A stretch of 10,495 nt of DNA from a virus (taxonomy: Duplodnaviria; Heunggongvirae; Uroviricota; Caudoviricetes), in the IMG/VR virus record IMGVR_UViG_2693429700_000005; one strand, given 5' to 3'. Position numbers: made by a program. The stretch's first letter is position 1; the number at the start of each line of letters is the position of its first letter. Positions 3,001-6,000 of this stretch are shown one piece after another.

Positions 3001-6000
3001 TGAGAAAGATATTTCGCGTTTAAGCATGGGTAACGAAGTTAATGAAAAAATAATTGCAGTTATAGTCAAGACGTTAGCATATAGAGAGTCTATGTTGTGT
3101 TAGACTTTAACTCTACATTGATATAACATTAGCCAAATATTCAACAGTGTATGCGACCAAACACCAACATGTCGCATACATATACAATTTGAATATTTAA
3201 TTATATTTACTTAATGTATTTCTATAAAAGCAAATTACAAACTCACAACAAAAAACCTCATAACACATTAACAATCAATTCTTTTCATCTTTATAAATTC
3301 TCATATCAGGCTTGCACCCGATAAACCGACGAAAACTATTTAAAACCCATCGAGTGAAGTAATCTCTAAAACCAAAGAAATACCAAGTGAAAATATTCAC
3401 GATAAAATGCCCGGTCAAAGCCCTTCCTGTACCGCATGCAAGAACAGTAAAAAATCAGATGTTTTCATAAATATCAGTCCTCATCGTTTTGCCTGGCATG
3501 TCCTTTACCAGCAATCTTCTGTATGCACTAAGCCTAGATAGAATCCACTCAGTGTACACTGAAGCCCGCTCGACGCTTTCTTGTTCGTAACTTCGATTTT
3601 AGTCAATCACCTTGTTTTCCTCGCACGATGTCTTAGCCACCGGATATCCCACAGGTGAGCCGTGTAATTGAAGGTTTTTACGTCAGATTCTTTTGGGATT
3701 GGCTTGCGTTTATTTCTGGAGCGTTTCGTTGGAAGGTATTTGCAGTTTTCGCAGATGATGTCGGTGAAACTTCGTCGCTGTCGCCTCATGCCGCCCTCCT
3801 GACGCCCTGCCCGATCGCCATCAATGCCGCTTTGGATACAGTAGTAAACATTCGTCGAGGACTGATGAACGGTCGCCAAATCAGCAGCATGGAGCCTTTG
3901 CTGTTTCCCTTCTTCTCCAGCCCTGTCGATGGTTCGATAAAATTAATCCGTCCATCAGTGATGATGCGAACTTCGTCGACACTCTCCAGAGCCTTGCTGA
4001 ACCATCCGACTGACATATCCTCTGGCACAAGCATCACTACCGTCTGTCGCTGTTGTATGCACTGCTCAGCGGCTTTTTCCACCCACGGCCTGATATTGCT
4101 GTACGGTGGGTTATTCCAGATTGCACCGTGGCTTACCCACTCAGAATTGAGCGCGTCGTCGACCTCAGTTAGCCAGTGAGCGCACAGAGCGTTTTTGTCG
4201 CTCGCAGCTGAATCCAGCCAGAATCCAAACTCAATATCCAGTGCATCAAAAAGCCAAAGCGGCGTTTGCCAGCAGTCCTTGTCGTGTGCTGGTGTATTTG
4301 ATTTGATAGTCATGCAGCCCTACCTTTTCGTTGTGACCATTCATACTCTCGCCGGGAGTCATCACTCCACCGCACGTTGCGCTCTGAGCCGAACCAGAAC
4401 ATGATTTCGATAAGCTCAGTCATGTTGGCCTTTCGCATTTTGCTGGTACGCACGCCAAGCATGACAACGCCACCGTCGATACCAGGCGCACTTCTTTGCT
4501 CCAGTTTTTTGGTCTTAAGCCACAGGGCAGTGAACAGGTCTTTCCAGTCTTCCGGCGCCAGCCGTTGACCATGCCATAGCACCTGACGCGAAACATCGTT
4601 CAGCATCGGCCACATGCGGTCATTCTGCGCTTTGCTGCGCTTGGGTTCTTTAACGTGGACTTCGTGGGGTGACTTGTCGTCGATGGGTAGTGAGAGAATG
4701 GCGTCTATGGCGTTATTTCTGATTGCTTCGTTGCGAAGCAGAAAGGTTTGCTTCATCTCCTGCTCTCCGGTTCCATTTTTCAGCCGCCGCAGCAACTGAT
4801 GGTGCCCATGCCCCCCTGGCTTCACAGAGGTCACATTCTGCATAGCCCCACACATCAATATTTATTCCGGCCTCAACCCACAGACGAGCATTACCGCCGC
4901 AAAACGGACATTCTTTTAGCTTTGGCTGGGTTAATGATAGGTCGCTCATGCTCACTCCTTCACTTAAAATCCAGACTCCGGATAATTCTGTTGCGCTGAA
5001 ACTCATTGTTGAGTTTGAACAACCGTCGAAGAACACGGTCACGCGGATAGCGTCGTGCGGCAGGTGAATGCTCATACAACTCATCAAGCGGCAAACTGGA
5101 CGATGAACGATACCGATACCAACGCACCAACTCTTCACGAAAATTAGCCCTGACAAGCTCAGCTATCGTACTCATTTCTTAAAACCTCCTCAAACGCATT
5201 CTGACGCATTTTTCATTCTCGCTGCTTATCGGCATGCCTTGCACGTGCTTACCTCACCACAGAGCGATTGTGATGCCTTAAAAGCGATTTATTGAAGTGA
5301 TATTTGCTTAATCGAAATTCTTTTCTTTGATTCCTGCGGCCCTGATGGCTTTCATTACTGCAATTACCGTTTTGTCACGCCCATCCTCATAACCCATCGC
5401 ATAAGCACCTTCTTCACCATCTTTCCAAAGGTCGTCATTCGATTCGGGCCAGTCGATATCCAGTTCAATAGCAGAGCGCGATGCCTGCCATATCACCCAG
5501 GCAAACTCTTTTAATTCATCGTCTCCCGTGAACTGGCTTTTGTCTTTTGACCACCAGTTTTCAAACTGTCGGTAGCTATCGTTCACTTCCCTCTCCCCCA
5601 AATAAAAAGGCCTGCGATTACCAGCAGGCCTGTTATTAGCTCAGTGATGTAGATGGTCATCTTTTAACTCCATATACCGCCAATACCCGTTTCATCGCTA
5701 CACTCTGGCGACACTCCTTAAAAATCAGGTTCGTGCTCACCTTTCCTTCCCGTTCTTCCCTGGTAGCAAACCGGTAATACACCGTTCGCCAGACCTTACC
5801 ATCAATGACCAGGATTCCTGCCCGCGCCATTTTAGCCGCAGCCTGATTTATGCTGGTTACGGTTGCGCCTGTTACCGCGGAAACGTCCTGTGCACAGAAG
5901 TTCTTATGCGTCCCGAGGTAATGAATAATTGCCTCTTTGCCCGTCATACACTTGCTCCTTTCAGTCCGAACTTAGCTTTAATTTCTGCGATCTTCGCCAG

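Follow-up and report, generated by a model that had tools for sequence, protein, structure and literature searches.

The 503-bp interval that separates ninE from an AT-rich cargo gene (positions 3104-3606 of the window, by which we mean the whole analyzed stretch of 10,495 nucleotides from the IMG/VR virus record IMGVR_UViG_2693429700_000005) is a mosaic joint of the ordinary kind in a lambda-like prophage, made up of a dead ninF remnant, a frameshifted copy of a small gene, orf64, and a hairpin-bearing spacer. Judging from sequence similarity, the two small genes, ninF and orf64, account for about 350 of the 503 bases, which runs counter to the original prediction of some 500 bp of non-coding DNA. 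The finding is an unexceptional one: the apparent void, part of a widespread module of Stx1-type prophages, is gene debris rather than a regulatory island or the end of an operon. Very probably, the interval marks the right-hand edge of a module replacement within the nin region of a Stx1-phage-type prophage, and its small-gene debris would be read through after induction. The features on which this interpretation is built are the following:

1-124: end of an IS629/IS1203 element cutting ninG, 100% identical to a Sakai IS629 copy
196-765, minus strand: HNH endonuclease gene (Pfam HNH_3, E = 5.5e-11; gp36 of AU6Stx1)
734-775, minus strand: lambda-type 3' end of ninF and start of ninG, 95-98% identical to lambda, Sf6, P22 and Sp15
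781-1156, plus strand: decayed IS911-like (IS3 family) remnant, interrupted by stops, that extends from the left inverted repeat through orfA into the 5' portion of orfB
1331-3103, plus strand: AT-rich cargo gene encoding a 590-aa protein, convergent with the nin operon
3104-3274: AT-rich spacer of 171 nt between the convergent orf64 and 590-aa genes, unique to the architecture of the window
3135-3198, plus strand: nested hairpin, with outer stem 3135-3144/3189-3198 and an inner 11-bp stem 3147-3157/3171-3181 closing a 13-nt loop
3266-3274: end of the homology to the orf64/PD-Lambda-6 cassette, consisting of the 4-nt tail-to-tail spacer and TTA
3275-3468, minus strand: orf64 pseudogene for a small predicted membrane protein (ATG 3468-3466, stop 3277-3275)
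3455-3610, minus strand: ninF remnant of 51 codons (GTG start 3610-3608, stop TGA 3457-3455)
3607-3789, minus strand: intact ninE, 60 aa (Pfam NinE, E = 4.7e-43; 96% identical to lambda and 97.8% to Sakai Sp15)

Small-gene debris downstream of ninE

Several observations behind the original prediction were reproduced. The interval contains no open reading frame (ORF) of 60 codons or more, the longest being 47 aa (3275-3418, minus strand); ninE is the final intact lambda-type gene ahead of the gap; and the GC content, about 0.50-0.55 in the phage genes, drops to 0.28-0.39 left of the gap, where the AT-rich cargo lies. The lack of a longer ORF carries no information: when these 503 bases (34.6% GC) were shuffled 2000 times, 83% of the results likewise contained none of at least 60 aa, with a median longest ORF of 44 aa. 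The RefSeq and phage records carry no annotation across 3104-3606.

The prediction that no ninF-like frame follows ninE was not upheld. The GTG start of the ninF remnant overlaps the ninE stop codon (TGA, 3609-3607) in exactly the arrangement found in lambda (GTGA), but codon 4 is an in-frame TAA (3601-3599), and the remainder is a composite: codons 1-16 are of the lambda type, positions 3482-3582 are of the type found in phage ev099, and the last nine codons are foreign. Specifically, 3562-3782 is 96% identical to lambda ninE together with the first 16 codons of ninF, and 3482-3582 is 87% identical to the ev099 ninF allele. At the protein level, the match to PHROG 672 is confined to residues 1-16 of the remnant (E = 4e-4), and Pfam yielded no match to it. 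Thus, the remnant retains the start that overlaps the ninE stop, but neither similarity across the whole NinF protein, including its Cys-rich core, nor an uninterrupted frame. Among 42 related loci, codon 4 is TAA in 38 and CAA, which leaves the frame open, in 4, and the start codon has changed to GTA in 17.

The second small gene, orf64, is preceded by a Shine-Dalgarno sequence (GAGGA, 3482-3478) and has a run of six T residues (the plus-strand A run at 3449-3454) where intact alleles have seven, so that its zero frame ends after 17 codons. The conserved core of the family of 61-69 aa proteins (TVLACGIGGAL-GHF-VN-FTWY-FGFRDYFTRW) is nevertheless encoded at 3448-3275 in the -1 frame. Intact alleles of 64 aa were found in Escherichia albertii (L008) and E. 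coli (P0101), with few in E. coli overall, and homologs elsewhere share 56-87% amino acid identity. In one such comparison, substitutions at codon positions 1, 2 and 3 numbered 6, 2 and 19, respectively, corresponding to 14 synonymous and 6 non-synonymous codon changes, and this bias toward the third position supports orf64 as a real coding sequence. The T6 form is present in 35 of the 36 IMG/VR loci with the architecture of the window, and an exact match to the T7 form was found in none of 251 complete E. coli genomes, a count based on identity bands and match lengths. The copy in the window carries one substitution (G9R) beyond those of phages AU6Stx1 and SH2026Stx1. Accordingly, orf64 belongs to its family by the conserved core, but it has neither an intact frame from the ATG nor a close tail-to-tail partner, the convergent 590-aa gene being located 171 nt away.

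The PD-Lambda-6 cassette and probable replacement of the nin-region module

The partner of orf64-type genes in other prophages is PD-Lambda-6, an anti-phage defense gene (Vassallo et al. 2022, PMC9519451; PADLOC PDLC04020). In all 19 PD-Lambda-6 loci examined, a small orf64-type ORF (61-69 aa) lies tail-to-tail with this gene at a distance of 4-17 nt and runs in the same direction as the host operon. Their settings in phages are of at least five different kinds, the pair being located behind cro, ydaT, a pRha-like gene or ninF-like sequence, or else between the major capsid gene and FI. The small ORF in these loci shows the above 56-87% amino acid identity to that of the window, whereas PD-Lambda-6 itself is absent from the window; a tblastn search of the annotated phage collection with PD-Lambda-6 found nothing. 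The clone on which PD-Lambda-6 was experimentally validated as a 'single-gene' system (UMB6655, RRUL01000001 425952-426863) had flanks of about 257 nt, long enough to take in the small ORF. We tentatively suggest, as a possibility that is more doubtful than likely, that orf64 is the relic of an unrecognized second component of PD-Lambda-6 that decayed after the loss of its partner, that the convergent site serves as a slot for cargo exchange, and that the 590-aa protein is the replacement in Stx1-type phages, a candidate new defense protein or type III effector.

The 590-aa protein had no match in Pfam, NCBIfam, PADLOC or the PDB and matches PHROG 9230, the function of which is listed as unknown. 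Its homologs are restricted to E. coli, E. albertii, Salmonella and Providencia, all representing genera that carry type III secretion systems, and the E. albertii homolog (71%) is chromosomal and located two genes away from a homolog of NleF. A relationship between the 590-aa protein and PD-Lambda-6 was considered and rejected, with no similarity found between the two and no PADLOC model matched. The AlphaFold2 model, built from 18 homologs, was unusable (mean pLDDT of 39). Upstream of the gene, a consensus-level promoter-like site was found at 1202-1231, although such matches are no commoner than in shuffled sequences. The left flank of the cargo is formed by the IS911-like remnant, which lies 6 nt from the ninF/ninG joint, matches the IS911 end at 24 of 24 bases, is 67-75% identical to IS911 in the orfA region (tblastn with OrfA: 48% identity, E = 7e-15, stops present) and contains an (AAATAG)n array at 957-1015.

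In agreement with the predicted recombination junction, homology to other phages and prophages breaks off at no fewer than four points within or adjoining the interval. From ninE leftward, these are the change from lambda-type to ev099-type ninF at about 3562-3582, the transition from ev099-type ninF to the orf64 cassette at 3482, the end of the cassette homology, with the BLAST limit at 3266-3270 against L011, L014 and L016, and the end of the 590-aa gene module at about 3087-3103. In other prophages, the TTA at the cassette end serves as the PD-Lambda-6 stop codon. In E. albertii KF1 (L021), the sequence corresponding to 3281-3540 is shared with the window and is followed by PD-Lambda-6, which indicates that the joint between the ninF remnant and orf64 is older than the swap. 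We infer from the shared breakpoints that PD-Lambda-6 preceded the 590-aa gene, as opposed to the reverse order or an independent assembly.

By sequence similarity, the phage backbone resumes on the other side of the cargo at 734-775. The HNH gene that follows opens with the N-terminus of NinG (MAKPARRRC), and the first ~98 nt of ninG are present at 124-221. The original prediction that everything from ninF to Q is absent is therefore correct with respect to ninH and Q, but not with respect to the ninF remnant, the ninF-3'/ninG-5' joint, the HNH gene and the start of ninG, all of which are in place. Moreover, ninH and Q are missing only because the IS629 end at 1-124 truncates the prophage; an inverted IS629 copy is found near 10310-10495, the window ends form a 127-nt inverted repeat, and homology to AU6Stx1 begins at position 124. 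In AU6Stx1, which shares the sequence of the interval, the genes to the left of the cargo are HNH, ninG, ninH, Q and stx1, in this order, at odds with an abrupt end of the early operon. The architecture of the window was found at 99-100% identity in 251 of 5426 complete E. coli genomes, as well as in AU6Stx1 and SH2026Stx1.

The module replacement would have expanded the region between the end of ninE and the start of ninG from the 0.5 kb of the Sp15 type (ECs_2979 and ninF) to 2.8 kb. Under this scenario, orf64 would have entered as one half of a two-gene cassette with the convergent PD-Lambda-6 and would here be orphaned and frameshifted, with the 590-aa gene now occupying the former PD-Lambda-6 slot and the swap point coinciding with the PD-Lambda-6 stop codon. 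In the lysogen, the 590-aa gene would be driven by its own promoter, and the hairpin might end or stabilize the transcript, possibly reducing antisense transcription into ninE, P and O. In the lambda paradigm, the nin region is read through to Q in an N-dependent manner. Upon induction, N-modified RNA polymerase from PR would be expected to cross both remnants, the spacer and the cargo, which lies antisense, and, in intact relatives, to reach HNH, ninG, ninH and Q beyond it; the two small genes in the gap would be functionless leftovers of evolution.

The spacer hairpin and alternative explanations

Among E. coli genomes, the spacer is confined to these 251, where it is annotated in none, and its phage matches are limited to four records of AU6Stx1 and SH2026Stx1. 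It is not shared by the chromosomal copy of the 590-aa gene in E. albertii, and the divergence between E. coli and E. albertii is greatest at 3200-3270. The hairpin begins 32 nt past the end of the convergent 590-aa reading frame, has an outer stem of 10 bp and folds with a free energy of -19.6 kcal/mol (z-scores of -5.5 for the plus strand and -3.2 for the minus strand), making it a candidate 3'-end or terminator element of the 590-aa gene. Of the hallmarks of an intrinsic terminator, it possesses a stable, G+C-containing stem-loop but not a U run directly 3' of the stem: the tail reads AUAUACAAUUUG, which is not a canonical U tract, and a terminator consensus scan of 2900-3900 found none. 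The inner stem is invariant across the 42 loci, and this conservation gives no support for the structure because a stem that never varies leaves no covariation. Assignment of the hairpin to the Rfam family MIR1444, the best-scoring family in the interval, was rejected as a chance match (27.9 bits, with the gathering threshold at 80).

Three other interpretations of the interval were weighed. The gap might be a truly non-coding scar of recombination or deletion that ends the early operon and may hold a regulatory element, a small RNA or what is left of an attachment site. Such a scar would fit a recombination joint with several breakpoints, the absence of annotation in the RefSeq and phage records and the presence of a strong hairpin, but we consider it highly improbable given that some 350 of the 503 bases are recognizable gene remnants and that the operon picks up again from 775 downward, continuing to Q in AU6Stx1. 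The small RNA and attachment site envisaged in the original prediction were not recovered either: a search of the entire window against Rfam 15 at permissive E-values returned only chance-level matches, all below threshold, and ARAGORN found neither a tRNA nor a tmRNA fragment. Short repeats shared with the region to the left of the cargo proved to be low-complexity matches to the (AAATAG)n array. The best direct 25-mer shared by the cargo flanks was equaled in 100 of 200 shuffles; the inverted 25-nt match between 923-947 and 3201-3225 was equaled in only 2 of 200 but falls in the AAATAG array, and terminal repeats or a second IS copy around the cargo were accordingly rejected. Neither strand of the spacer is significantly similar to IS911. 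The hairpin could alternatively be the body of a small RNA with host or phage targets, derived either from the 3' UTR of the 590-aa mRNA or, as an antisense transcript, from a promoter-like site on the minus strand (3228-3200), which matches at 10 of 12 positions and ends 2 nt upstream of the hairpin. The stability and conservation of the hairpin would suit this role, and short sRNAs that bind Hfq are known from moron sites in prophages of enterohemorrhagic E. coli (EHEC; PMC4104026). However, promoter-like sites are fewer than expected from shuffles (2 vs. 3.0), the hairpin has neither a poly-U tail nor an Rfam match and occurs only with the 590-aa gene, and the known prophage anti-sRNAs are located 3' of PR' rather than in the nin region (PMC4104026), rendering a small RNA extremely unlikely. 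The published Hfq-CLIP and sRNA maps of EHEC Sakai do not apply here because Sakai Sp15 lacks the module.

A further alternative is that orf64 is alive in E. coli, with -1 ribosomal frameshifting or transcriptional slippage restoring the full-length small membrane protein at a low, tuned level. The T6 run lies in a canonical slippery heptamer, U UUU UUA (GA-T-TTT-TTA), in the zero frame, from which a -1 shift enters the conserved frame; none of the T6 loci examined has a stop within the downstream frame of 58 codons; T6 has come close to fixation in E. coli; and the E. coli-type T6 alleles differ by two synonymous changes against one non-synonymous change. Yet these amount to only seven DNA alleles, for which an open frame would be expected from recency alone, and no stimulatory structure was detected downstream, the fold of 3470-3380 having a z-score of +0.56. 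In addition, the comparison of the window with E. albertii revealed four non-synonymous and one synonymous codon changes, a pattern that looks unconstrained, and the KF1 copy has suffered a further 2-nt deletion, suggesting that decay of this gene is common. Continued expression of orf64 thus appears very unlikely.

The mosaic joint produced by module replacement accordingly remains our preferred interpretation, and the interval turns out to be, for the most part, what the original prediction had named as evidence against itself, namely, ordinary conserved phage sequence with a recognizable small gene. The analysis fills in 500 bp of debris that annotation pipelines leave blank; it supplies exact breakpoints for the entry of the AT-rich gene into the nin region, with an IS911-like remnant on one side as opposed to a swap at the stop codon of a defense gene on the other; it brings to light the strict pairing of PD-Lambda-6 with a small membrane ORF; and it flags the 590-aa protein as an uncharacterized cargo present in about 5% of complete E. 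coli genomes.

Relationship to known prophages and morons

The closest relatives of the window are the phages AU6Stx1 (KU977420/NC_049921) and SH2026Stx1, which are 99.6% identical to it over 3104-3606 and have the same gene order from O to HNH, but whose records extend through ninG, ninH, Q and stx1, where the window is cut by IS629. Sakai Sp15 (VT1-Sakai) is a cargo-free relative, with 97.8% identity over 3616-7674, from O through ninE, and with 743-775 and the start of ninG in common. Between ninE and ninG, however, Sp15 carries ECs_2979 (133 aa) and an intact NinF of 69 aa, and it possesses neither orf64 nor the 590-aa gene nor the HNH gene.

With lambda, the window shares the GTGA overlap of ninE and ninF, 16 ninF codons, the ninF-3'/ninG-5' joint and the position in the PR operon upstream of Q, but it differs in that the Cys-rich core of NinF is missing, a stop occupies codon 4, and the two halves of ninF are separated by 2.8 kb of foreign DNA. 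Shigella phage Sf6 likewise has an IS3-family element in the ninF/ninG neighborhood; the Sf6 IS911 is intact and inserted about 100 nt into ninG, whereas the window keeps only a decayed left end, followed by the cargo.

Finally, the cargo resembles lambdoid-phage morons (Juhala et al. 2000, as cited in PMC4104026), which are expressed from the repressed prophage by means of their own promoter and terminator, being an extra gene of deviant GC content amid backbone genes that is absent from close relatives, including the collinear Sp15, and that comes with candidate signals of its own, the promoter match at 1202-1231 and the hairpin at 3135-3198. It departs from them in being antisense within the early (nin) operon rather than downstream of PR', and in its two neighbors, an IS remnant at one end and an orphaned cassette gene at the opposite end.

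Anatomy of the ninE junction

The interval between ninE and the AT-rich 590-aa cargo gene (3104-3606), described in the original prediction as non-coding, holds both a ninF remnant (ninF') and a frameshifted small ORF for a predicted membrane protein (orf64; orf64' as it stands here).

Features of the window
124-221, first ~98 nt of ninG
196-765, minus, HNH endonuclease gene, with a counterpart in AU6Stx1
1331-3103, plus, 590-aa ORF, convergent with the early operon
3274-3104, spacer holding a nested hairpin (3135-3198)
3468-3275, minus, orf64, with a GAGGA motif 9 nt upstream of the ATG
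3610-3455, minus, ninF remnant; its GTG start (3610-3608) overlaps the ninE stop, as in lambda
3607-3789, minus, ninE (Pfam NinE, E 4.7e-43)
3786-4313, minus, Dam-type methyltransferase
5944-6645, minus, P
6642-7580, minus, O
8281-8931, plus, cI
Lambdoid early-right operon, minus: cro, cII, O, P, ren, ninB, Dam-type methyltransferase, ninE

The interval indeed lacks any ORF of at least 60 codons (the longest has 47 aa), an observation without weight, as the same holds for 83% of 2000 shuffled versions of its bases (34.6% G+C). The further claim that no ninF-like frame exists is contradicted by the remnant: positions 3562-3782 match lambda ninE and the first 16 codons of ninF at 96% identity, and 3482-3582 match the phage ev099 allele of ninF at 87%. 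Translated, the frame gives VID*NRSYEQESVERASVYTEWILSRLSAYRRLLVKDMPGKTMRTDIYENI*, codon 4 being TAA; among 42 related loci, this codon is TAA in 38 and CAA, giving an open 51-codon frame, in 4, and the start codon has been lost (GTG to GTA) in 17. The NinF profile (PHROG 672) matches residues 1-16 only, and a Pfam search of the remnant returned no match.

Left of ninE, G+C drops from 0.50-0.55 to 0.28-0.39. Inverted IS629/IS1203 termini lie at both window ends (1-124 and 10310-10495), forming a 127-nt inverted repeat with the whole prophage fragment between them; 1-124 is 100% identical to a Sakai IS629 end. Homology to phage AU6Stx1 begins at 124, the left IS629 copy truncating ninG, and the loss of the remaining ninG, ninH and Q is due to IS629 rather than to the junction. 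This exact IS-bounded arrangement was found in no complete E. coli genome of the collection, the best matches covering 124-9517. The ori iterons within gene O (7132-7233), annotated in AU6Stx1 as O-binding iterons, carry a 20/39-nt tandem repeat and a chance-level Rfam match (snR191, 27 bits).

orf64 and the PD-Lambda-6 cassette

A T7 run yields a 64-aa product, MKTSDFFTVLACGIGGALTGHFIVNIFTWYLFGFRDYFTRWVLNGFRRFIGCKPDMRIYKDEKN, in E. albertii (locus L008) and a few E. coli (P0101). The window has T6 (plus-strand A run 3449-3454), and the zero frame therefore ends after 17 codons. T6 is present in 35 of the 36 IMG/VR loci with this architecture; among 251 complete E. coli genomes, none matched the T7 allele exactly, the best matches being one base shorter than the query. 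The homopolymer is six or seven long within E. coli-type and within E. albertii-type sequences alike (T6 in related locus L059; T7 in L025, L008 and L017-L019). The run lengths imply that slippage or recombination at the T/A run has happened repeatedly. Homologues of orf64 share 56-87% identity, with substitutions clustered at third codon positions (6/2/19 in one comparison, which has 14 synonymous and 6 non-synonymous codon changes), and orf64 is, or once was, a genuine coding gene. Rescue of its product by -1 frameshifting at the U UUU UUA heptamer, which is in register, is unlikely: no structure lies downstream of it (z +0.56), and low diversity accounts for the open frame. We regard ninF' and orf64' as debris.

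At the DNA level, prophages of Salmonella, E. coli and E. albertii resemble the window over 3266/3270-3481/3502 only, that is, orf64 and a few flanking bases. In those prophages, the small ORF comes after cro, ydaT or a pRha-like gene, and is followed, four nt on, by a convergent 131-aa gene that PADLOC assigns to the validated anti-phage defence gene PD-Lambda-6 (full-length match, E 1.2e-87). PD-Lambda-6 was paired with a membrane-protein ORF of 61-69 aa, 4-17 nt away tail-to-tail, in all 19 loci examined (named loci: L011, 5001-5601; L014, L016, L021, L024, L060-L065, L068 and L075-L078). The pair occupies at least five phage contexts, and in three loci lies between the major capsid gene and FI, the small ORF there being only 56% identical. 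Homology to these cassettes stops just past TGA-TTGT-TTA, at the PD-Lambda-6 stop codon. E. albertii KF1 matches 3281-3540 at 90% and continues into PD-Lambda-6, so that the ninF'/orf64 joint is older than the cargo change.

PD-Lambda-6 was published as a "single-gene" clone (425952-426863, gene at 426209-426605; PMC9519451, supplementary table). With ~257-nt flanks, the clone is long enough for a tail-to-tail partner of 4 + 195 nt, should the source strain carry one. The small ORF may be an unrecognised second component of PD-Lambda-6, and this strict pairing is the sole lead of wider interest.

The cargo, the spacer and their possible expression

The 590-aa protein (PHROG 9230, unknown function) has homologues in E. 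coli, E. albertii, Salmonella and Providencia only; searches for a family, a structure or a defence model gave no match, and the all-helical AlphaFold model is unusable (pLDDT 39). A 71% homologue sits on a chromosomal island of E. albertii, with an NleF homologue two genes away; the protein may be an effector or act in defence. That chromosomal copy and the window share 1307-3087 only, so that the spacer is part of neither parent module. At the opposite flank, a decayed IS911-like left end occupies 781-1156 (tblastn to OrfA, 48% identity, E 7e-15, with stop codons), which suggests, without proving, that an IS took part in cargo acquisition. The orfA remnant contains a perfect (AAATAG)x9.8 array (957-1015), 316 nt upstream of the 590-aa gene, with 3 to 13 copies among related loci that have it (two truncated loci lack it); spurious annotated ORFs arise from it, such as a 64-aa "hypothetical protein" in O157:H7 strain 2571.

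The spacer hairpin begins 32 nt past the stop of the 590-aa gene and its fold has dG -19.6 kcal/mol and z -5.5 on the plus strand, and z -3.2 on the minus. It has no U tract, and a terminator scan found no site; its inner stem is invariant over 42 loci and so offers no covariation. E. coli and E. albertii versions diverge most at 3200-3270. A small RNA built on this hairpin is highly improbable: Rfam match and U tail are absent, and no promoter is better than chance. Known EHEC prophage sRNAs sit 3' of PR' (PMC4104026), and the module is missing from Sakai, the strain on which that mapping was done. A search for attachment-site or tRNA remnants and for shared or terminal repeats led to their rejection.

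In lysogens, the 590-aa gene would probably have the expression of a moron, and 1202-1231 holds a promoter-like site (TTGACG-18-AATAAT, with a TG upstream). The mRNA of the gene would terminate at the hairpin or be stabilised by it. After induction, by the lambda paradigm, N-antiterminated PR transcription would cross both gene remnants (ninF' and orf64'), the spacer and the cargo in antisense on its way to Q.

Relation to known lambdoid prophages

Three things are directly observed: the anatomy of the interval, its conservation, and an operon that continues in a phage genome identical in other respects. Over the 1 kb around the gap, identity is 99-100% to 250 complete E. coli genomes and 99.1% to the two Stx1 phages, AU6Stx1 and SH2026Stx1; the interval is conserved phage sequence with recognisable remnants of small genes. 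The 171-nt spacer alone occurs in exactly 251 genomes, at 255 places and nowhere else, annotated in none. The interval's sequence has thus already been present, unannotated, in hundreds of public genomes.

The HNH ORF (196-843) has an HNH_3 and a weak AP2 match and starts with the NinG N-terminus (MAKPARRRC); in AU6Stx1 it overlaps the beginning of the true ninG. It has the look of a homing-type endonuclease gene that entered ninG right at its start, and Sakai prophage Sp15 does not have it.

The order in AU6Stx1 is ninB, methylase, ninE, gap, 590-aa gene (opposite strand), HNH endonuclease, ninG, ninH, Q and stx1AB, and the operon therefore resumes past the cargo. Thus, the junction proposed originally stands, but not as the end of the operon, and the genes from ninF onward are not absent, the HNH gene and the start of ninG lying beyond the cargo in the window itself. 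The cargo-free relative Sp15 has in common with the window 3616-7674 (97.8%) and 743-775, between which it carries ECs_2979 (133 aa) and an intact 69-aa NinF; ~0.55 kb was therefore replaced by a 2.8-kb module (776-3615). As a lambdoid mosaic joint at the edge of an accessory insertion, the interval is typical: a newly and fully dissected case of a known kind rather than a new kind of element.
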